A stretch of 21,468 bases of DNA, from the IMG/VR virus record IMGVR_UViG_3300029058_000046; one strand, given 5' to 3'. Positions 3,799-18,965 of the stretch are shown in pieces. Under the pieces are notes generated by a model. That model was not told where the DNA came from and searched no databases. It saw only the letters and a program-made list of their open reading frames with translations. Source of the stretch: a virus (taxonomy: Duplodnaviria; Heunggongvirae; Uroviricota; Caudoviricetes). How positions within the stretch are numbered: position 1 is the first letter of the stretch; each line of letters starts with the position of its first letter. Position numbers and translations under genes: made by a program.

Positions 3799-4032
3799 AT
3801 GATGAAAAGATTATTTCTAATAATAGCTGTTGTTCTCTCTCTTACTGGCTGCCAGAAATTGCCGACACCTATATGTTACGGTGAGGCTATCATTGGTGGA
3901 CAGGAGACAGTCATACCCATATATGCTGTTAAAAAAGTGAACGACTATACCTTATACAAAGCGGGTAGTATCTATAACTGGCGATGGGTAGGAGTAGGTG
4001 CTTTCTCATCAGTCCGTTGCAATGCTGAATGA
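3799..4032 (+). CDS. Small lipoprotein (77 aa precursor); possibly a Cor/Llp-type superinfection-exclusion lipoprotein
   Basis: N-terminus MMKRLFLIIAVVLSLTGCQK has a signal peptide and lipobox L-T-G-C. Size and position just downstream of fiber genes match Cor/Llp-type exclusion lipoproteins; the function is inferred, not shown. Confidence 0.6.
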   Translation: MMKRLFLIIAVVLSLTGCQKLPTPICYGEAIIGGQETVIPIYAVKKVNDYTLYKAGSIYNWRWVGVGAFSSVRCNAE

Positions 4033-5768: not shown

Positions 5769-6152
5769 ATGCTGAACGAGAAACGTTCTATACAAACTAT
5801 TCGCGATTGCACGAGTATTATCGAGACTCATGTGCTGAATCAGCACAAGCTTGAAGTACGTAAGCTCAATAATGACGCTATTGAACCGGAAGACTCACGC
5901 TTCATCGTTACCTTCAAAGACGATGTTGAGCGCGCTGGTGCAAGCGTGAAGCCATTAGCTGAAGCAATTTACCTGAATGGTCGTGTTCGTTTTGTAGTCA
6001 AGCCAGCTAAACAGTACCCTGAGCTGTCTCGTTTTATCGAGGCTTTTTCGGAGGTTATTGAACATTCTATTCGCCGCTTCTTACGCAATCATGGTAGCAT
6101 TGTCAGCACGGTTAAGGCTGATGATTCTGCTACAAAATGGCTCCTACACTAG
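5769..6152 (+). CDS. Hypothetical protein (127 aa)
   Basis: ATG preceded by AAGGTGG Shine-Dalgarno; 3' end overlaps the next ORF by 16 nt. No recognisable motif. Confidence 0.55.
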   Translation: MLNEKRSIQTIRDCTSIIETHVLNQHKLEVRKLNNDAIEPEDSRFIVTFKDDVERAGASVKPLAEAIYLNGRVRFVVKPAKQYPELSRFIEAFSEVIEHSIRRFLRNHGSIVSTVKADDSATKWLLH

Positions 6153-6889
6153 ATAGCGCATATTCAAAAGATCTAAGCGAGTTTCCTCATAAAGGGGAGA
6201 CTCGTGTTGTTCGTTTTGGCTTTCTTATCAATGAAGCCTCCCTCTATAAAATCTCAGAAATTGAAATCATTGAACCAGAAGATGACATTTGCCTGTATGT
6301 CTCTATGGAACTTGTAGGTGCGCGCGACCAAGGCGACCTGAGCGAATTCATCTTAGATCGAGCGGATGAAGATGCCCCTGAAGAAGAGATTATCAAAGAG
6401 GTGCTCCAGTCCGGGCTTCTGGACGAAAACAAAAATACGATCGCTGGTAGGATAGCTCTGCGTGAATATAGTTTTGTTGAAGACGGTAATGAGATCGAAT
6501 GTTACCAGGTAGCCGGTGTCGAAACTGTCAGAGAGCGTCGTCAGCGAGGATTGTGTCACCGTACCTATCTCTTTCTTCTTCATTGGTATGAGCATTTAGT
6601 CTGCGACGATACACAAACCATTCCTGGTGCTAAGATCTGGGCAGGGCCTCTCATGCGAACCGGCGATGTGCGTATATACAATGCCAAAACAGAAACGTTC
6701 GAGGATGTGTTAGGCGAGTACGGGATGGGGAAAGAAACCGGATTTTTGCCGTGGAACAGAGGATTGTTGCTTGATGCAGAGTTAAGCTCTTGGCTCCCAA
6801 ACAAAGTGCAAGTTAACGTTCAGAAATTTATCGTACTTATCATCTCCCGCAAAACAAGAACTCCAGTAGGTTTATACCTAAAAGATTAA
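6137..6889 (+). CDS. Hypothetical protein (250 aa), acidic, no recognised domain
   Basis: Long ORF overlapping the preceding gene, followed directly by a strong intrinsic terminator. Confidence 0.6.
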   Translation: MAPTLDSAYSKDLSEFPHKGETRVVRFGFLINEASLYKISEIEIIEPEDDICLYVSMELVGARDQGDLSEFILDRADEDAPEEEIIKEVLQSGLLDENKNTIAGRIALREYSFVEDGNEIECYQVAGVETVRERRQRGLCHRTYLFLLHWYEHLVCDDTQTIPGAKIWAGPLMRTGDVRIYNAKTETFEDVLGEYGMGKETGFLPWNRGLLLDAELSSWLPNKVQVNVQKFIVLIISRKTRTPVGLYLKD

Positions 6890-6893
6890 AAAT

Positions 6894-6920
6894 CAGGCGA
6901 CTTTGGTCGCCTTTTTTGTT
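6894..6920 (+). terminator. Rho-independent terminator
   Basis: caggcgac-tttg-gtcgcc stem-loop followed by TTTTTTGTT, immediately after the stop at 6889. Confidence 0.75.
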
Positions 6921-7015
6921 AACAGCCATTGATTCTCGCCTAAAAATTCTAAGGCAGCACCTACCATTTAACCTTTACACCACAGCCGTAGGCATTTAGG
7001 CTATATCACATATAA

Positions 7016-7031
7016 GAAAACAAGTTGTTTC
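7016..7031. promoter_or_regulatory. Palindromic motif AGAAAACAAGTTGTTT upstream of the ParA gene; candidate operator
   Basis: Nearly identical copy (AGAAAACAATTTGTTT) at 9946-9961 upstream of the helicase gene. Both are inverted repeats AACAA-N-TTGTT, 34-50 nt upstream of start codons. Confidence 0.3.
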
Positions 7032-7065
7032 AGACGATAATTATATACGCAAAGGGAACTCTCCA

Positions 7066-7734
7066 ATGACCAAGATCTTTGTGGTTGGCGGCACAAAGGG
7101 CGGGCCTGGCAAATCCACCGTTGCCCAGCAAATTGCCGTTTGCCTGAAAGTCAAAAAGAAGAAGAAGGTTTATATCACCGATATAGATATTCAGCGCACG
7201 ACAACGAGCTGGTGTGAAGACCGTCGACAGAACGAAGACCTTGAGCTGATTCCTTTTGCATACGTTCAGGATGACATCATTAAGCACCTAAAATCGCTTC
7301 AGGGTAGAGCTGAGTATGTAGTGGTAGATGCTGGTGGCTTTGACTCCGAAATTCAGCGACAAGCGATGCTGATGGCCGACGTTATCATTATCCCGCTTCG
7401 TCCTAAGCGTCGTGATTTGAAATCTCTGCGTGACATCGATCCTATTATCGACAATGTTCGTAATGTAAACGATAAAGTGAAGGTCCGCGCGGTCATGAAC
7501 CAGTGCCCGGCTTTGCCATCACAAGTGTCTCGCATTCTGGCGGCTAAAGAGATTGTTGAGACGTTTGGCATCGAGTCTGCGCCAGTCAATCTATATAACC
7601 GCAACGTCTATGATGATGCGGAAGAGTCTGGTCGTTCTATCTTTGAAATGACCGGTAGCGAGCGCGACAAAAAGGCGGAAGCCGAGTTTGAAGAATTTGT
7701 AGATTATCTGTTGAGTCTGGAGGAAGAAGAATAA
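7066..7734 (+). CDS. parA: ParA/Soj-family partition ATPase (small, type Ib-like)
   Basis: Deviant Walker A box GGTKGGPGKST at the N-terminus, ~220 aa, acidic C-terminus. Followed by a small overlapping partner gene. Confidence 0.85.
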   Translation: MTKIFVVGGTKGGPGKSTVAQQIAVCLKVKKKKKVYITDIDIQRTTTSWCEDRRQNEDLELIPFAYVQDDIIKHLKSLQGRAEYVVVDAGGFDSEIQRQAMLMADVIIIPLRPKRRDLKSLRDIDPIIDNVRNVNDKVKVRAVMNQCPALPSQVSRILAAKEIVETFGIESAPVNLYNRNVYDDAEESGRSIFEMTGSERDKKAEAEFEEFVDYLLSLEEEE

Positions 7735-8093
7735 TGTCCATGAAAATGGGTGACCTAGCAAAGCGCAAAGAGCCTGATGCACCGGCTAAGAACACAACTC
7801 CTTTGCGCCAACCAGTCAGACCACAGGGACGCCCGACTCGTGGCAAAGAGAAAATTAAAAGCCGCACAATGTCACTGGAGGACGAATACTTCGAACTGCT
7901 GGAGATGATGAAGTTCATCCCTCGCTTCGAGAAGTTCACTCGTTCTGACGTGATTCGAGCAGCCATTTTCCATCTGGCAGAGAAGTCACCGCAGGAAATC
8001 GAGGACATCGTGAAATTGAATGAGGCGATCACCGCTGCCGATGTCACGATGCGTACCGATGAAATCAAACGAGAGTTGATGAAGAAAGGTTAA
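7734..8093 (+). CDS. Small partition partner protein (ParG/ParB-like centromere-binding candidate)
   Basis: 119 aa; start overlaps the ParA stop (TAATG). Basic, probably disordered N-terminus and a C-terminal region (MSLEDEYFELLEMMK...) compatible with a ribbon-helix-helix type Ib partner. Assignment is by context. Confidence 0.45.
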   Translation: MSMKMGDLAKRKEPDAPAKNTTPLRQPVRPQGRPTRGKEKIKSRTMSLEDEYFELLEMMKFIPRFEKFTRSDVIRAAIFHLAEKSPQEIEDIVKLNEAITAADVTMRTDEIKRELMKKG

Positions 8094-8098
8094 AAATC

Positions 8099-8129
8099 AT
8101 GCATTGGCGCGTACATTGCGCCAATGCAT
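8099..8129. terminator. Palindrome between convergent genes; candidate bidirectional terminator
   Basis: atgcattggcgc-gtacatt-gcgccaatgcat: 12-bp perfect stem, 7-nt loop, between the + strand gene ending 8093 and the - strand gene ending 8146. No clear U-tract. Confidence 0.5.
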
Positions 8130-8145
8130 AACTACAGTGTCAGCT

Positions 8146-8913
8146 TTATGCCGCGCTAACACTATGTTCAGTCCTAACCACCCCAACCTTCACAAAAGGG
8201 CTACCGTAGCTTGGTGGCTTCTTGATTAATTTGCCTACATACAGTTTTCTAATATGCTCATCGGCTATTCTGCCAACAAATTCATAACGTTTTGTGTCGG
8301 GGCCAAGAGCTATATCCCTTGTAAAGTACTGCTGAGAACCGGCTTTGACCCAGCATTCAATCTGATAAACTTCCATTATCAGCCCACCATATGTAGCGTA
8401 GGCATATTTGAGATTCTCGTCTCTTGGAACCTTTGCCCATACGCCACGCGTAGCCTCATATAATGCCAGAGCGGACATTCCTGACTTGTAGGTGCTGTTT
8501 AGCAGGAAGGCAAGACCGGCGTGCTCAGGAGCAATTTCAGTTTCCTCTTGCAGCACTAAGTGATGGTAGGCGTCCAGTGATATTCTGCCCATCATGGAAC
8601 CACTTCCTCGTACCTTATTCGTAAGCTCTCCGACCCCCATAAGGTCGATGCATGTCGCCTCAACAAGTTTGGCTGTGGTTTCATCCATACCATGACGAAG
8701 TATATCTATGCCTAATTTTTTATTAGCCAAAAGTTCTTTGATCCGCATGGATTTGGGAGAGTCATCGGGATACTTGATGTGATCGAGACAACGAGTCGAT
8801 TTGCCTTTTCCTATGTAAAACGGTCTTTTCATCTTGTCTTCTGTATCATAGAGACAGTAAACATAGTATTTAGCCTTATCCAATGATCTCGCGTATACCG
8901 ATAAATCGTCCAT
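8146..8913 (-). CDS. GIY-YIG nuclease-domain protein (255 aa) with an unassigned ~160-aa C-terminal domain
   Basis: N-terminal YVYCLYD...RPFYIGKGK...R..H...E pattern matches the GIY-YIG catalytic motif. Only sizeable antisense gene in the partition/replication region. Confidence 0.7.
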   Translation of the reverse strand: MDDLSVYARSLDKAKYYVYCLYDTEDKMKRPFYIGKGKSTRCLDHIKYPDDSPKSMRIKELLANKKLGIDILRHGMDETTAKLVEATCIDLMGVGELTNKVRGSGSMMGRISLDAYHHLVLQEETEIAPEHAGLAFLLNSTYKSGMSALALYEATRGVWAKVPRDENLKYAYATYGGLIMEVYQIECWVKAGSQQYFTRDIALGPDTKRYEFVGRIADEHIRKLYVGKLIKKPPSYGSPFVKVGVVRTEHSVSAA

Positions 8914-9024
8914 TATTGCATCTCTTTGCTACTGACTAATGCGTTCTATTTTACACATAAGTTTTTAATCAATTTAACAGGCTCAAAGTGTAGAGCTTCT
9001 GGGCGTCTAAGACGACAAGTTATG

Positions 9025-9079
9025 CCTGCTTCTGTATATATAAATAATAAGTAACTTATTAAATATATACGGAAGCAGG
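9025..9079. promoter_or_regulatory. ~55-bp AT-rich near-perfect palindrome between the divergent GIY-YIG gene and the replication module; candidate operator or origin element
   Basis: cctgcttctgtatatat ... atatatacggaagcagg: 17-bp arms with one G-T mismatch, around an internally palindromic AT-rich core (aataagtaacttatt). Confidence 0.35.
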
Positions 9080-9195
9080 TCTTTTAAAAGACACCACCAG
9101 AACAACTCCCTTCCGTTTCCACTTCCAAAAACTGCCACCAGTCGCTATCATCCGCTCATTGTGATAAGTAAGTAACTACCTACCAGGTGAGCCAC

Positions 9196-9936
9196 ATGAG
9201 CCAAATCTTTTTCGATACCATCGACAACGACCAGTACGACTTCATGACAGAGTGGAATACCGCTGTTATGGACAAGTGGGTCGCTGAAAACATTGGTTTG
9301 TCGCGCTGTAAAGACGAGGCTGAACTCTTCGAGACGAAGTGGTTTGATTACCGCGACATGCATCCTCTCATGGCCACCTGTCTTTTTACGGAGGCATACA
9401 AACGTCAGTACTCAAATATCATGCTGACGCACGGTCGCGAACACTTTGAAACAGCTCCGTTCACCACCGGGTTAAAACGCCTGCCTTATCAGGAGTTGTC
9501 GACTGCCAATAAAACGTCTCTATGGAAAGCACGCCAGTTTGCTGACCGCTATTGCTGCTCATACGACTACTTTATCTCCACCGTTCTTTCCGCAGCTGCA
9601 CGACGGCTGTGGGACAAGCTGCCGCGCCCACAGCATTTATGGCAGCCAGAGCTGGTTGAGATATTCGAAGAGAAATTAGCCAGACGCGCAACAACCCGTC
9701 TGGATGACTCTCTAGTTAGCTTTAAGCATATGGGAGACATGCAGTTCAACCCGATCCAGGAAAGCTATTTTGAGTGGATTCTGGAGCGTTTACGCACCAT
9801 CCCCCGCAGCAAGCGCATACGCGCAATTTTCTCCGCTATCTGGCTAATGGAAATCGTTCCAGAGCGCCTTATTTCCGCCCACTTTCCAGAAGAACTGGAA
9901 GAAGCACGGCGGTTTATTGATCCCCTATCTAATTAA
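9196..9936 (+). CDS. Hypothetical protein, first gene of the replication module (possible initiator or helicase loader, by position only)
   Basis: AGGTGA RBS 5 nt before the ATG at 9196 (the track's start at 9187 is GTG). Directly precedes the helicase gene. No motif recognised. Confidence 0.55.
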   Translation: MSQIFFDTIDNDQYDFMTEWNTAVMDKWVAENIGLSRCKDEAELFETKWFDYRDMHPLMATCLFTEAYKRQYSNIMLTHGREHFETAPFTTGLKRLPYQELSTANKTSLWKARQFADRYCCSYDYFISTVLSAAARRLWDKLPRPQHLWQPELVEIFEEKLARRATTRLDDSLVSFKHMGDMQFNPIQESYFEWILERLRTIPRSKRIRAIFSAIWLMEIVPERLISAHFPEELEEARRFIDPLSN

Positions 9937-9945
9937 CTAATACTA

Positions 9946-9961
9946 GAAAACAATTTGTTTA
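9946..9961. promoter_or_regulatory. Second copy of the AGAAAACAA(G/T)TTGTTT palindromic motif, upstream of the helicase gene
   Basis: AGAAAACAATTTGTTT, 19 nt before the ATG at 9980; matches the motif at 7016-7031. Confidence 0.3.
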
Positions 9962-9979
9962 AAAAACAAAGGAAAGCAC

Positions 9980-11320
9980 ATGACCGAACTTTGCCATACA
10001 GGACGCGGGCTGTCCGAAGAGTTTGATGAAGATTTCCAGAACAGACTGACGGCATATTTTTGTCGTGATCACGAGTTTCTTACTCGTGCGGGAGATCTGG
10101 TTGTGCCTAGCCAATTTGCCAATGCGGCCAATGCCATATTGGTTAATATGGTTTCGGGCTATTACCGTATGTACAAGAGCGCGCCTTCTTCATCTGCGAT
10201 TCTGGATATGCTTAAGCGTGCGAAACGCGATAAGACCATCCGTGAGGAACTCTTCCCGGATGTTGTTGCTGCGTTTAAGCGCATCCTTGCAGAAAAATTG
10301 TCTGATACCTCGTACATGGTTGACCAGGTATCCACATTCGCAAAAAGTGTAGCGTTTGATGATGCTCTGATTAAAGCTGCTGAACTGAAAGAGAAGGGCG
10401 ACTTTCAGGGGGCGATGGCAATCATGGCCAAGGTTCAGCAGATAGGCTCGAACGAAGCGACCGGAATCTATGACTACTACACCTCCGCAAGTGAGCGATT
10501 GAAAGCGCGTGAATATGAGGCTTCAGAGGAGTATGTGCCAAACAGCATTACAACTGGACTCCCTCTGCTTGATAGATTGCTGTACCAAAAAGGCTGGGCA
10601 AAGCGCGAAATGGTGCTCTTCATGGGTTTTGCTAAATCCGGTAAATCGACCGCAATGGGTGAGTTTTCCATAAACGCTACGCTTGCTGGCTACAATGTTC
10701 TGTATCTCTCGCTGGAGGTTCACACCACCATTTTGTCCGACCGTTTTGATGCAAGATTGTCGGAGACGGAAATGTCCAAGCTGGTGGAACGGCGCGATGA
10801 AGTTCATCGCAAGTTGGCAGAGTTGGGAGCCACGAAGGGGATTGGTAGTTTGTGGGTTGTTGAGCGTCCGTCAGGAAGTATGTCACCGGCAGATCTGGAC
10901 CGTATGCTTAACAGTATGAAAGCCAATGGCATGGTGCCTGACATGGTTGTTGTCGACTACGCAGATTTGATGCGTGCCAGTTATGACCTTCGTGATGATC
11001 GCGCCAACATTCGTAGTATCTACACCGATTTACGTGCTCTTTATGACAAGCATAACGTTGCTGGTATCACGGCGTCGCAAACAAACCGTGAAGGTGGCGC
11101 GTCAGAAGTTGCCACAATGATGCACGCTGCCGACAACATCGAAAAAGTACGTATTGCTGACCTGGTAATAACGATCAACAAAACCGAAGAAGAAGAAGCG
11201 AAAGGAGAGGCTCGTCTCTACTTTGCTGGTTCGCGTAACCAGCAGGGAGGGATCAGCATTCGCGTTAAACAAAACCTCGAACAAATGCGCTTCATTGAGC
11301 GAATCTTAGACGTTACCTAA
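9980..11320 (+). CDS. DnaB-family replicative DNA helicase
   Basis: Walker A GFAKSGKST, SLE motif (LYLSLEV), Walker B-like VVVDYADLM and SQTNRE motif, in the order typical of DnaB/T7 gp4-type RecA-fold helicases. AAGGA RBS upstream. Confidence 0.85.
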   Translation: MTELCHTGRGLSEEFDEDFQNRLTAYFCRDHEFLTRAGDLVVPSQFANAANAILVNMVSGYYRMYKSAPSSSAILDMLKRAKRDKTIREELFPDVVAAFKRILAEKLSDTSYMVDQVSTFAKSVAFDDALIKAAELKEKGDFQGAMAIMAKVQQIGSNEATGIYDYYTSASERLKAREYEASEEYVPNSITTGLPLLDRLLYQKGWAKREMVLFMGFAKSGKSTAMGEFSINATLAGYNVLYLSLEVHTTILSDRFDARLSETEMSKLVERRDEVHRKLAELGATKGIGSLWVVERPSGSMSPADLDRMLNSMKANGMVPDMVVVDYADLMRASYDLRDDRANIRSIYTDLRALYDKHNVAGITASQTNREGGASEVATMMHAADNIEKVRIADLVITINKTEEEEAKGEARLYFAGSRNQQGGISIRVKQNLEQMRFIERILDVT

Positions 11321-11327
11321 AAAATAA

Positions 11328-11348
11328 GCGTGGAGAACACCTCCACGC
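11328..11348 (+). other. Perfect 8-bp hairpin (gcgtggag-aacac-ctccacgc) between the helicase stop and the primase gene
   Basis: Inverted repeat read directly. It contains the GTG that the ORF track uses as the primase start (11330), so that start is unlikely to be real. No U-tract. Confidence 0.35.
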
Positions 11349-11401
11349 TTGATTCATTGGTGAAACAACTTTTCTTTTGCCAAACCACAAAAGAAAAACA
11401 C

Positions 11402-12583
11402 ATGAGCCTTTATGTTATATCAACATTTAGGTTGGTCACAATATTGCCTGTTAAAAGTGGAATTATCGTGAGCGAGCTGAAAGAGCTAATTACCGAATTA
11501 GATTTTGAACAATGGTTGGATACTGAAGGTATCGTTTATCGACGTGGAGGCGTGAGTACTCGCGGTCGTGAAGTGAATATCAAGGAGTGTCCGGTATGCG
11601 GCAGCTCCAACTGGAAGGTATATTTCAATCTGACCAGTGGCGTCGGTAAATGCTTCGCTGGTGATCATCCCGAAGAGATTCAGTTCAATAAGCTGGTCTT
11701 CCTCAAGCACTACAGCGGTAAATCACGACGACAGTTCGAGGAATATGTGCAGAACGCTCTTCTTTCCCAGGGGTGGGCACCAAAGAAAGAAGAGATAGTG
11801 CTTGCAAGCACAGTCGAGTTAGAGGGACCAGTTGCACTCCCTCGTCATTACGATCTTCCTATAGATGGCCATCTTCCAGACTATCTGGTTGAACGAAATA
11901 TATCGCCTGAAATGGCAAAGTATTTTGACCTACGATACTGCGTCGAAGGCAAGCACGCTTATGTAGATCCGTATACAGATCAGGTTAAAGGACAGATTTT
12001 CGATATGCGAATACTGATACCGGTTTACGATCTGGATGGGGTAATGAAGACATTTCAAGGACGAGACATTACCGGTACAGCAGAACGCCGCTACCTCTTT
12101 CCTATGCAGCTTCCAGCTTCAGGTAAGTTTCTCTACAACGGCCACAATGCAGTCGGCAAACAGACTGTAGTTGTCTGTGAGGGGGCGTTCGATGTTATGG
12201 GGGTCAAACGAGCTATTTTTGACGAAGAAACATTACGCGATTACGTGGAACCAATAGGAACGTTCGGGATGCATCTATCTGGTAACACCACTCAGGATGC
12301 AGAAGATCAGTTGGGCGCGTTCCTGACGCTCAAGGCGCGTGGATTACGTAATGTGATCATGATGTGGGATAGTGAAAAGCAAGCTATACGAAACACTATG
12401 GCCGCAGCCAGGCGACTGACCAGTATCGGTCTTAATGTGAAAATTGCATGTTTGGGCGAGGAAGGACTCGACCCCGGCGATGCGACCCCGGGGCAGATTA
12501 TCAAAGCCTACTATTGCGCAAAACCTTACTCACGACAGCTTGAACTTTTAAGCAAGGTAAAAGGCATAGCAGCATTAGTTTGA
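11402..12583 (+). CDS. DNA primase (zinc-ribbon plus TOPRIM domain)
   Basis: Zinc-binding motif CPVCGSS...GKCFAGDH and TOPRIM-like acidic motifs (VVVCEGAFDVMGV, EEGLDPGD). Start uncertain: ATG 11402 or GTG 11468; 11330 sits inside a hairpin. Confidence 0.75.
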   Translation: MSLYVISTFRLVTILPVKSGIIVSELKELITELDFEQWLDTEGIVYRRGGVSTRGREVNIKECPVCGSSNWKVYFNLTSGVGKCFAGDHPEEIQFNKLVFLKHYSGKSRRQFEEYVQNALLSQGWAPKKEEIVLASTVELEGPVALPRHYDLPIDGHLPDYLVERNISPEMAKYFDLRYCVEGKHAYVDPYTDQVKGQIFDMRILIPVYDLDGVMKTFQGRDITGTAERRYLFPMQLPASGKFLYNGHNAVGKQTVVVCEGAFDVMGVKRAIFDEETLRDYVEPIGTFGMHLSGNTTQDAEDQLGAFLTLKARGLRNVIMMWDSEKQAIRNTMAAARRLTSIGLNVKIACLGEEGLDPGDATPGQIIKAYYCAKPYSRQLELLSKVKGIAALV

Positions 12584-13720
12584 ACCAGTATTAGTCACGT
12601 ACACATTGACCGAAAATGATTTAACTTCTGTGTTGAAGTTGTCAGTCATTACCGCGAGGTAGGCATTCTTGGTATCTCTGAATTGCTTCAGTATGATTTG
12701 AACGTTATCGGTGCAAACAAACGAGGTAGCCAGATTGCCTCCTTTCTCTGAAAAATCCTTCAGGAAGGTGCAGTCAACTTTGCCATCATTAGCGGTGAAG
12801 GTAGCATCATCACCCTGCCAGGTAAATGTAGCGTTAACGCCCTTATCAATGGATTTAGCAATAAGTCGCTGGGTGGCGGATTTTGTTTTGGCTTTGGAAG
12901 CCGGCGCTCGATATTTGCCGCTTTCTTTCAGTTCTGCAATGTAATCACAGCCATTTTTATCTTCTTTATCACAAGCAGCCTGATAAAGCTCAGCTGCTTT
13001 TTTATAGTCTTTTTTAACCCCTTCACCATACTCATACATAATGCCAAGATTTGTCATGGCATCGGCGTTTCCGAGTTCAGCAGCTTTTTTATACCACTTA
13101 ATTGCTTCGGCATCGTTGCGTTTAACACCTAAACCGTCATCGTATAAGGTGCCTAATGCGAACATGCCATCTGAACTACCTTGATCCGCCGCTTTTTTGT
13201 AATAAGTAAAAGCTTTTTTATAACTCTTTTGTACACCTTTACCATATTGGTAATACGCACCAAGAAGGTAGCTAGCTTTAACATACCCGGCATCAGAGGC
13301 TAGTTTGAAGTATTTAATGGCGAGCGCATGATCTACTTTACCAAGCATCCCCTTTTGATAAATAGCACCAAGATTGTTATAGGCTCTACCTTCACGAGCA
13401 TCTCCCGCAAGTTTGTAGTACTCAACTGCTTTATTTAAGTCTTTATCTACACCCTCGCCAAATGTGTACATAACCCCAAGTGCATAATATGCTACTTTGT
13501 CTCCCTTTTCTGCAGCGAGATCAATCCACTTCTTGGCCTCAACTACATCCTTATCAAAACCATTGATACCATCAAAATAATTTGTCCCTAACTCACTTTG
13601 TGCTGCGGTATCCCCTGCGGTAGCGGCTTCTATCAGCGTTTGTTTATTGTCTGCGTTAACGAATCCAGAGCTAAAAAGCAAAGTTAATGCCAGCAACGAT
13701 GAAGATTTTATGTATTTCAT
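12575..13720 (-). CDS. Secreted Sel1-like repeat protein with a ~130-aa non-repeat Cys-containing C-terminal domain
   Basis: Sec signal peptide MKYIKSSSLLALTLLFSSGFVNA/DN, then at least six ~36-aa repeats of the form A..YY..G.MY..GEGV.KD..KA..WYKKAA typical of Sel1 repeats. 3' end overlaps the primase 3' end by 9 bp. Start taken at the ATG for MKYIK; the track's TTG at 13765 is less likely. Confidence 0.75.
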   Translation of the reverse strand: MKYIKSSSLLALTLLFSSGFVNADNKQTLIEAATAGDTAAQSELGTNYFDGINGFDKDVVEAKKWIDLAAEKGDKVAYYALGVMYTFGEGVDKDLNKAVEYYKLAGDAREGRAYNNLGAIYQKGMLGKVDHALAIKYFKLASDAGYVKASYLLGAYYQYGKGVQKSYKKAFTYYKKAADQGSSDGMFALGTLYDDGLGVKRNDAEAIKWYKKAAELGNADAMTNLGIMYEYGEGVKKDYKKAAELYQAACDKEDKNGCDYIAELKESGKYRAPASKAKTKSATQRLIAKSIDKGVNATFTWQGDDATFTANDGKVDCTFLKDFSEKGGNLATSFVCTDNVQIILKQFRDTKNAYLAVMTDNFNTEVKSFSVNVYVTNTGSN

Positions 13721-13953
13721 ATTTTTTGTTCTGTTGATATAGGATGAACAGTTTAGACGCGGCAAGTGTCAAGTGTGCGAAAAATGGTACTTAAATTTAG
13801 TTAATATGTCAGCTTTGTTGATTTAGTTTATGGTCGGTAAAGTTACTAGGAAACTAATAACCATAAGAAATAGTACGCCATTTAATTATTGTGGCACTGC
13901 TCGTGTTTTGATTAACTAATACCTGCGATAAATATAAATAAAGGGAAGCCAAC

Positions 13954-18718: not shown

Positions 18719-18793
18719 GATGGTGTAGCTCAGCGGTAGATCAGTTGGCTGTTAACCAACTGGTCGGTGGTTCGAATCCACCCACCATCGCCA
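18719..18793 (+). tRNA. tRNA-Asn (anticodon GUU), CCA encoded
   Basis: Manual fold: acceptor gatggtg/caccatc, anticodon stem gttgg/ccaac with loop CTGTTAA, T-arm ggtgg-ttcgaat-ccacc, discriminator G, CCA. The D-stem has one mismatch. Confidence 0.75.
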
Positions 18794-18798
18794 ATTTA

Positions 18799-18885
18799 GG
18801 GGAGTTAGTCCGTAGAGGTAGCGGTGTAGACTGTAAATCTACTGTCATGGCGACTCGGGTGGTTCGACTCCATCACTCCCCACCA
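18799..18885 (+). tRNA. tRNA-Tyr (anticodon GUA), class II with long variable arm, CCA encoded
   Basis: Acceptor ggggagt/actcccc, anticodon stem-loop gtaga-CTGTAAA-tctac, ~15-nt variable arm, T-loop ttcgact, CCA. Starts 5 nt after tRNA-Asn. Confidence 0.8.
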
Positions 18886-18889
18886 AATT

Positions 18890-18965
18890 GCCGGTTTAGC
18901 TCAGTTGGTAGAGCAGTCGCTTTGTAAGCGAATGGCCAGCGGTTCAAGTCCGTTAACCGGCACCA
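18890..18965 (+). tRNA. tRNA-Thr (anticodon UGU), CCA encoded
   Basis: Canonical D-arm tagctcagttggtagagc, anticodon loop TTTGTAA, T-arm agcgg-ttcaagt-ccgtt, acceptor gccggtt/aaccggc, CCA. Starts 4 nt after tRNA-Tyr. Confidence 0.85.

Follow-up and report, generated by a model that had tools for sequence, protein, structure and literature searches.

An AT-rich palindrome in three copies in SSU5-like phage-plasmids, a possible transcription terminator at the border of the replication operon

The palindrome and its locus

The virus record IMGVR_UViG_3300029058_000046 (Caudoviricetes) comprises 21,468 nt, in the following called the window, and contains a 55-bp palindrome at positions 9025-9079. 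In the original prediction, which had been made from the letters of the window alone, the palindrome had been read as a possible replication origin, resolution site or repressor operator. The region from 8000 to 10000 was found to be 100% identical to the Escherichia coli plasmid pM160133_p3 (NZ_CP022167.1, 113,428 bp). Relatives of this region were present in Salmonella phage SSU5, in phage Cyrano, in Klebsiella phage-plasmids and in 862 PLSDB records from Klebsiella, Escherichia, Enterobacter, Yersinia, Salmonella and other genera. The window also codes for a tail fibre, a small ParA, a ligase and tRNAs. Judging from the identity to pM160133_p3, the SSU5-type relatives and this gene content, the source DNA is an SSU5-like phage-plasmid. 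The genes at the locus and the parts of the palindrome are as follows:

7066-7734, plus strand: small ParA, in the operon from which the palindrome would block read-through
7734-8093, plus strand: 119-aa partner protein of ParA, same operon
8146-8913, minus strand: GIY-YIG open reading frame (ORF; Pfam PF22945), variable cargo in a slot of which the palindrome is the right border
9025-9079: 55-bp palindrome CCTGCTTCTGTATATATAAATAATAAGTAACTTATTAAATATATACGGAAGCAGG, the site A copy of a three-copy element of the SSU5 family
9025-9041: left arm CCTGCTTCTGTATATAT, its first 13 nt being the family-conserved block CCTGCNTCYGTAT
9037-9069: AT-rich inner palindrome with the centre TAAGTAACTTA, differing in sequence and length between copies
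9063-9079: right arm ATATATACGGAAGCAGG, from a repeat search
9196-9936, plus strand: orf9196 (phrog_2500, a PHROG of unknown function), the first gene 3' of the palindrome in all lineages
9980-11320, plus strand: DnaB-like helicase (Pfam and PHROG matches)
11330-12583, plus strand: DnaG/Toprim primase (Pfam and PHROG matches)

The palindrome had been placed in a 273-bp intergenic region between the GIY-YIG gene and the replication genes. This placement holds, with the minus-strand GIY-YIG gene to the left and the plus-strand operon orf9196-helicase-primase to the right. The length of 273 bp (8914-9186) applies if the ORF starts with the GTG at 9187, and the region has 282 bp if the ATG at 9196 is used.

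The architecture that had been described, a near-perfect palindrome of about 55 bp with 17-bp arms and an internally palindromic AT-rich core, was confirmed by a repeat search and by folding. The two arms of 17 nt are 94% complementary, with T9033 versus G9071 as the sole mismatch, and 21 nt lie between them. The halves of the inner palindrome (9037-9052 and 9054-9069, 16 nt each) are 88% complementary, and the core halves are unequal by an indel of 2 nt. Folding yielded -16.1 kcal/mol for the DNA (z -7.3), -30.2 kcal/mol for the plus-strand RNA (z -7.1) and -24.8 kcal/mol for the minus-strand RNA (z -5.9), and in each case none of 200 shuffled sequences was as good. The plus-strand RNA hairpin has a stem of 17 + 7 bp with an internal loop and a G+C-rich base, in which CCUGCUUC is paired with GGAAGCAGG.

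The arm pattern does not occur elsewhere in the window beyond the two arms, at a chance expectation of 0.24. In a scan for minimum free energy (MFE) of the complete plasmid, three palindrome copies were among the ten most stable windows of 64 nt, and they had a G+C content of 0.27 versus at least 0.53 for the others. The A+T content between the arms is 80-93% across elements and 0.93 in this copy. The palindrome is thus real, non-random and, as a comparison of genomes revealed, family-wide.

Three syntenic copies with concerted arms

The repeated nature of the element could not be seen from the window. In the complete pM160133_p3 the palindrome is present in three copies, which have identical arms and the same orientation relative to the genes, and all of which are intergenic:

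Site A: upstream of the operon orf9196-helicase-primase
Site B: upstream of terS, its start lying 25 nt past the stop codon of a 267-nt ORF and its end 118 nt before the terS-like gene
Site C: just after the Dam methylase gene, with arms and 55-bp length as at site A and a different AT-rich core

Copy B is identical to copy A of the same plasmid over 55 of 55 nt, and the same three sites are occupied in SSU5. Two scans of IMG/VR yielded 123 pattern matches, 119 of which lie in the three contexts (A 41, B 45, C 33). The other four comprise two unrelated sequences, one match at a locus end, and one match in locus L166 with arms outside the three contexts. The latter is a 58-bp element (2308-2365) with the arms CCTGCTTCCGTAA...TTACGGAAGCAGG and a core that is not AT-rich; none of the neighbour genes of sites A, B and C is found within 1.2 kb of it, and it may represent a fourth context. 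About 800 PLSDB plasmids carry the element, most of them in several places, and Yersinia pestis pMT1 has retained site B only.

The arms CCTGCNTCYGTAT are nearly invariant across the IMG/VR instances, while the core sequence is variable. The scan contained 46 distinct palindrome variants with total lengths of 51-58 bp, and a few copies carry an inverted core. Within the Enterobacteriaceae set, the arm blocks CCTGC, TC and GTAT are invariant and the positions between them vary without compensation. The arm sequence was found essentially only in the three palindromes of an element.

More divergent elements were reached via homologues of orf9196. In Raoultella the palindrome CCTGCTCCCCAT...ATGGGAAGCAGG directly follows the parA-partner operon, and in the AT-rich metagenomic relative L200 the form is CCTGCTTTCTA...TAGAAAGCAGG, followed by TATTTTTAT. 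In the Providencia plasmid pPROV236-2 the three syntenic sites are likewise occupied, by inverted arms GCCGTGCTCCCAT...ATGGGAGCACGGC, of which the left one at site B is degenerate; total element lengths are 79 and 146 bp there, compared with 51-58 bp in Enterobacteriaceae. At site A of Morganella and Providencia a compact hairpin is formed from the arm motif, ATGGGAGCA-loop-TGCT(T)CC(CAT), which is followed by TTCTTTC (Morganella) or TTTCTTTTTTT (Providencia). Acinetobacter p5626 contains three AT-rich palindromes of 53-60 bp with the arms CGAATA...TATTCG and TTGGG/CCCAA motifs alongside, one upstream of the orf9196 homologue and one upstream of packaging genes. IMG/VR was searched for arms of the Raoultella and L200 types, and PLSDB for the palindrome of the Raoultella type, with no matches.

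In these relatives the two arms stay complementary at 9-13 of 13 positions while their identity to the E. coli arm drops to 2-5 of 13, indicating that the design is old. The arms are lineage-specific, CCTGCTTCYGTAT in Enterobacteriaceae, GCCGTGCTCCCAT in Providencia and CGAATA... in Acinetobacter, and they are alike among the three sites within a genome, which indicates concerted evolution within the genome. Identical arms that change together call for one of two explanations, namely correction of the copies by recombination or a co-evolving trans-acting factor. Copy A of the window equals its own copy B and is unlike copy A of Salmonella and Kluyvera relatives. The element codes for its own recombinase and exonuclease, and its copies A and B do not differ in this plasmid, which makes copy correction plausible.

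On its left side, copy A also forms a border. BLAST homology to SSU5, Klebsiella and other relatives starts at most 1 nt from the left edge of the palindrome, and at least 14 different upstream flanks adjoin copy A, while the flanks of sites B and C are conserved on both sides. The other border of this cargo slot is the end of the ParA-partner gene; the GIY-YIG cassette is one such cargo, and SSU5, Cyrano and others hold other genes in the slot. Judging from these comparisons, the left edge of copy A would double as the junction for the exchange of cargo genes.

Several other explanations for a repeated palindrome fared poorly. A MITE or another mobile element is rejected, as target duplications are absent and synteny is strict across families. 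A host repeat of the ERIC/REP type is improbable, since the arms occur only in SSU5-like contexts in IMG/VR and PLSDB and the sequence does not seem similar to ERIC/REP. For an invertible promoter switch the spacer of 21-29 bp is too short, and a flipped core occurs in few copies only. The linear SSU5 record (NC_018843.1 / JQ965645.1) is cut inside palindrome B, with 38 nt at its end and 17 nt at its start. A cos or pac site or a physical genome end is not supported, because IMG/VR loci end near all three classes at similar rates (A 4/41, B 4/45, C 6/33), a pattern that speaks for assembly breaks at a repeat and not for true genome ends.

Possible transcription termination and competing explanations

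The flanks of the palindrome contain the following features:

8997-9002: outer inverted-repeat half TTCTGG, to the left of the palindrome, partner of CCAGAA at 9097-9102
9080-9085, plus strand: T-run TCTTTT directly after the stem, within the small palindrome GTCTTTTAAAAGAC at 9079-9092
9097-9102: outer inverted-repeat half CCAGAA, within the direct repeat CCACCAG (9094-9100 and 9135-9141), opening a C-rich, G-poor tract
9123-9151, plus strand: predicted sigma-70-type promoter of the replication operon, with the -35 motif TTCCAA (9123-9128), a spacer of 17 nt and the -10 motif TATCAT (9146-9151)

The T-run is conserved on one side of the palindrome. Among the 8 nt next to the stem, the mean number of T on the gene-sense side is 5.45 at site A and 4.85 at site C, compared with 3.4 and 3.05 on the other side. 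The T-run directly follows the stem at both sites and is kept in variants in which the next bases differ (tcttttaaaag, tctttttctatg, tctttgatac, ttgtttgtag, ttttttaaag, tcattttcg, and tatttttat in L200). Behind co-oriented upstream genes, namely SSU5_037, SSU5_130 and that for Dam, the palindrome begins 23-25 nt past the stop codon; co-oriented genes ending up to about 25 nt before the palindrome were found in SSU5, Cyrano and Raoultella as well as at sites B and C, and in the window the upstream gene is on the minus strand.

The predicted promoter lies 44-72 nt downstream of the palindrome and does not overlap it. The motif TAT-N-AT was kept in 25 of 28 aligned site A regions, with L200, L198 and the truncated row L153 as exceptions; a consensus promoter scan did not flag the pair at 9123-9151. 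The conserved TAT-N-AT together with TTCCAA 17 nt upstream, both following site A, indicates a layout of a terminator followed by a promoter. In Raoultella, where the palindrome directly follows the parA-partner operon, the partition genes are thereby set apart from the lytic replication genes, and this arrangement looks ancestral. The outer inverted repeat has the general form (G)TCTGGG with CCCAGA(C), and a C-rich, G-poor tract follows each copy.

Our tentative preference, held with slightly less than even confidence, is that palindrome A serves as an intrinsic terminator or insulator where the partition/cargo region meets the replication operon, and that it is homogenised among the copies. 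This is the best-supported reading for copy A, and it was not among the three options of the original prediction. Rightward transcripts from the partition/cargo region would fold into the hairpin with the G+C-rich base GGAAGCAGG, followed by UCUUUU, at which RNA polymerase would be released in an intrinsic, factor-independent manner. Expression of orf9196, the helicase and the primase would then depend solely on the operon's own promoter about 44-72 nt further on, and read-through would be blocked from genes that have to remain active in the plasmid state. Recombination among the three copies, possibly together with a shared trans-acting factor, would keep them alike. At a hairpin of -30 kcal/mol with a G+C-rich base directly followed by UCUUUU, appreciable release of E. 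coli RNA polymerase is to be expected. A stable hairpin with a G+C-rich base and a T/U run directly behind it on the transcribed strand, placed some 23-25 nt beyond stop codons and before the next promoter, is also typical of intrinsic terminators such as T7 T-phi and lambda tR'. We infer both termination itself and termination as the selected function from this layout.

A number of findings weigh against termination. The stem of about 25 bp with an internal loop is much longer and more AT-rich than that of an intrinsic terminator; a compact hairpin with a loop of 3-8 nt and an unbroken stem is not formed, and a consensus terminator scan did not call the palindrome. The upstream gene of the window is on the opposite strand, so that there is perhaps little to terminate. 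Site B lacks the T-run (2.96 T of 8 nt), yet a canonical hairpin with a T-run is located 12 nt before terS. At site A of Acinetobacter the T-run is absent as well, and the palindrome is only 11 nt away from the start codon. The arms of the Providencia copies are 53 nt (C), 120 nt (A) and about 130 nt (B) apart with AT-rich sequence between them, in contrast to intrinsic terminators, and the arms co-vary. The predicted stability favours the sense strand at site A, the antisense strand at site C and slightly the antisense strand in distant relatives, and a test for selection on the sense-strand RNA (G·U versus A·C, and sense versus antisense MFE) revealed no consistent bias. Arm positions 6 and 9 are often mismatched and seldom compensated, with one compensated change among 11 at position 6. 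Lastly, ordinary terminators need no identical arms that change together at three sites, and those of the element, e.g., that at 6895-6912, have no sequence in common. A literature search, the pABTJ2 paper (PMC4411360) included, turned up neither a description of these palindromes nor transcript data on them, which is not proof of absence.

The concerted arms could instead be explained by a site that acts at the level of DNA. The arms of 13-17 nt would be bound by an element-encoded protein, either as a duplex or in the form of an extruded cruciform; candidates are a global repressor, a protein of the barrier or 'stoperator' type, and a ParB/KorB-like or centromere-binding protein. In the plasmid state, the bound protein would silence or organise the three modules next to the sites. 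We regard this as unlikely, although it is a live rival, and it is here that the operator proposed originally survives in part. It is favoured by arms that are the same at the three sites, lineage-specific, 9-13/13 complementary and essentially confined to the palindromes, by invariant arm blocks that are split by positions varying without compensation, and by a stability without consistent strand bias. In addition, two ParB-N-domain proteins and the small ParA with its partner are encoded next to sites B and A. However, the palindrome does not overlap the predicted promoter, be it the -35, the -10 or the start of transcription, and arm distances from 21 to about 120 nt fit no single rigid dimer geometry. 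No binding protein was identified, and recombination among the copies can yield concerted evolution without any trans-acting factor.

From established knowledge, the SopB centromere sites of the linear phage-plasmid N15 and the KorB operators of RK2 are likewise few, scattered inverted repeats near replication and late-gene control regions, with ParA- and ParB-like genes nearby. Dispersed inverted-repeat copies were indeed found, three in each of three lineages. In contrast to the short, contiguous N15 and RK2 sites of fixed geometry, the arms of the palindromes are variably spaced and the par promoter is devoid of the motif: the arm motif was absent from the region upstream of parA (6890-7065), which contains the different palindrome AAACAAGTTGTTT. 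Repetition at a few operon boundaries in a phage-specific form is also known for the lambdoid nut sites, where boxB is matched to N, and for mycobacteriophage stoperators. Unlike the 55-bp AT-rich palindromes, boxB is a 15-nt RNA hairpin downstream of promoters, and stoperators are asymmetric 13-bp sites that occur in dozens of copies instead of three.

A broader idea is that the three palindromes are programmed structure-forming DNA sites, read by a co-evolving factor of the element. They would be either initiation sites of lytic replication, i.e., three origins resembling those of herpesviruses, or hairpin targets of a Mre11/Rad50-like nuclease that seed recombination-dependent replication; gene conversion among the copies, like the swapping of cargo at copy A's edge, would be a by-product. 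This idea is rather improbable, and two separate readings are about as improbable.

The first is that the palindromes are three lytic-phase origins, at which the AT-rich centres unwind, the arms bind an initiator, and the helicase, primase and polymerase of the element take over in the manner of the herpesvirus oriS/oriL. The interior of the arms is indeed 80-93% A+T, copy A is directly upstream of the helicase-primase operon in every lineage, and short CCAGA/TCTGG repeats lie beside the copies. Like oriS and oriL of herpes simplex virus (established knowledge), the palindromes are intergenic, AT-centred and present in three copies per genome, and the arms would be initiator sites. In contrast to oriS and oriL, the conserved T-run is one-sided, which an origin leaves unexplained, and a separate iteron origin exists. 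No initiator or origin-binding protein was identified, a fold match being below any safe threshold.

The iteron origin also bears on the origin suggested originally for this palindrome. In SSU5 the Rep3-family initiator gene SSU5_069 is accompanied by at least nine iterons of 21 bp (59.4-61.0 kb), 27 kb away from copy A. Iterons lie beside repM in the Acinetobacter relative, and for pABTJ2 it has been published that iterons adjoin repM (PMC4411360). Neither a DnaA box (up to one mismatch) nor an IHF consensus was found within 8900-9200. The GC-skew analysis that had been proposed was uninformative, since the cumulative skew follows the gene direction monotonically in SSU5 and pM160133_p3 and has no switch at the palindrome. 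On these grounds a role as plasmid origin is excluded, a lytic origin is unsupported, and a unique origin-like palindrome is rejected in view of the three copies per genome.

The second is that the palindromes are structure-prone fragile sites. Hairpins would be cut, e.g., by the SbcCD/Mre11-Rad50-like nuclease of the element, and repaired from other copies or genomes, resulting in gene conversion and the exchange of modules and cargo. This would suit the sharp left edge of copy A with its many upstream flanks, the identity of copies A and B, the few inverted cores, and the presence of genes for a metallophosphoesterase and AAA ATPase pair, a recombinase and an exonuclease. Against it, sites B and C are flanked by conserved DNA on both sides, and a merely fragile site would be lost and not be kept at three syntenic places across families. 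A palindrome of 55 bp is also short for cleavage of the SbcCD type. We consider it improbable.

A similarly low probability is assigned to RNA processing or stability elements, i.e., RNase III sites or 3' stabiliser hairpins like the R sites of T7, which would separate the modules after transcription and could coexist with termination. The predicted pairing of 17 + 7 bp provides the roughly 20 bp or more of intercistronic double-stranded RNA that RNase III requires, and site B has an additional outer 8-bp stem, GGTCTGGG / CCCAGACC, in which two alignment columns contain compensatory changes. All copies are intercistronic and have one orientation relative to the genes, and processing would explain both site B and the Acinetobacter site A, which have no T-run. 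The RNase III sites of T7 (established knowledge) are also several similar long intercistronic hairpins at module boundaries of a genome with nearly all genes on one strand. Unlike those sites, the palindromes are near-identical copies and their predicted stability is not in favour of the sense strand, and the host RNase III gives no reason for lineage-specific arms.

A resolution site, also proposed originally, is unlikely given three copies, arms 21 to about 120 nt apart instead of the 6-8 bp spacer of res, cer or dif sites, and no adjacent recombinase gene, the integrase gene being about 13 kb away in pM160133_p3.

Further features of the element and implications

Two additional features of the locus are the following:

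8098-8128, minus strand: hairpin ATGCATTGGCGC-GTACATT-GCGCCAATGCAT with a perfect 12-bp stem, followed by GATTTTT, read from the sequence
9163-9184, plus strand: recurrent motif GATAAGTAAGTAACTACCTACC (GATAAGTAAGTAACTACCTA), conserved downstream of copy A and found ahead of at least 10 genes of the element

The hairpin at 8098-8128 lies between the convergent ParA-partner gene and GIY-YIG ORF and has a T-run on the minus strand only; it is probably the terminator of the GIY-YIG cassette. A bidirectional canonical terminator, AGGCGACTTTGGTCGCCT followed by TTTTTTG, is present at 6895-6912 between the ORF 6137-6889 and parA. Upstream of terS, at a distance of 12 nt, both pM160133_p3 and SSU5 contain the compact hairpin with T-run GAGCGCATGGACGCGCTCTGTGTGTTTT; its layout is attenuator-like and reminiscent of a late-operon terminator that needs antitermination.

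The recurrent motif, (A/T)ATGATA[AG]GTA[AG]gta..taCCTA, is imperfectly palindromic over about 20 bp, varies in its centre and is found 25-90 nt upstream of the start codons of many genes. It occurs at 4031, 9163, 14431 and 15301 of the window and in 11 sense-strand copies in pM160133_p3, and it may be a family-specific promoter (-10 and initial transcribed region) or a global operator. A second motif, TAAGNNCTTA, has 26 copies in Acinetobacter p5626 (L204-L206; 3.1 expected) and 9 in SSU5 (L004-L006; 1.4 expected). The copies are intergenic where their positions were compared with the annotation, and palindromes A and B are centred on the related TAAGTAACTTA.

In the 119-aa partner of ParA, a basic N-terminal tail is joined to a core that reads as ribbon-helix-helix. 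If this core is correct, the protein would be a ParG-like centromere-binding protein. It has no Pfam match and belongs to a PHROG of unknown function, and its Cyrano homologue is annotated as a RelE/ParE toxin. The palindromic motif AAACAAGTTGTTT is located at 7017-7032, 35 nt upstream of parA, and two further copies lie between palindrome B and terS. Its form AACAAGTTG occurs eight times in the plasmid on both strands, versus about 0.9 expected from sequence length and not from shuffling. The motif is a candidate operator of the ParA partner protein.

Elsewhere in the window, the gene for a 931-aa tail fibre (763-2300 region; Pfam Phage_fiber_2, Gp34_trimer and Peptidase_S74) contains tandem and dispersed DNA repeats of about 120 nt. 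On the minus strand at 12575-13765, just 3' of the primase gene, lies the gene for a Sel1-repeat protein whose N-terminus resembles a signal peptide; this gene looks like further cargo. Three consecutive tRNA genes are situated at 18719-18962, and these three tRNAs were the only Rfam matches at the gathering threshold in the whole window, with nothing at the palindrome. The SSU5 gene at 96897-97343 (L005 46897-47343, minus strand), which is annotated as 'transcriptional repressor', strongly matches Pfam Flag1_repress (FljA-like, E 3e-81), which points to repression of host flagellin and not to a phage repressor.

Clinical Escherichia, Klebsiella, Enterobacter and Salmonella commonly harbour phage-plasmids of the SSU5-like group; these elements are also present in Yersinia pestis as pMT1, and carry resistance genes and other cargo. 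A boundary element in three copies offers a handle on how lytic replication and packaging are silenced while partition and plasmid genes stay on, and it could be used to probe transcriptional insulation, a possible trans-acting factor and the swapping of cargo. If the palindromes are terminators only, the finding is a modest one. If a dedicated factor or a role in replication proved true, they would represent a new layer of control for the SSU5-like group of plasmid-phages.

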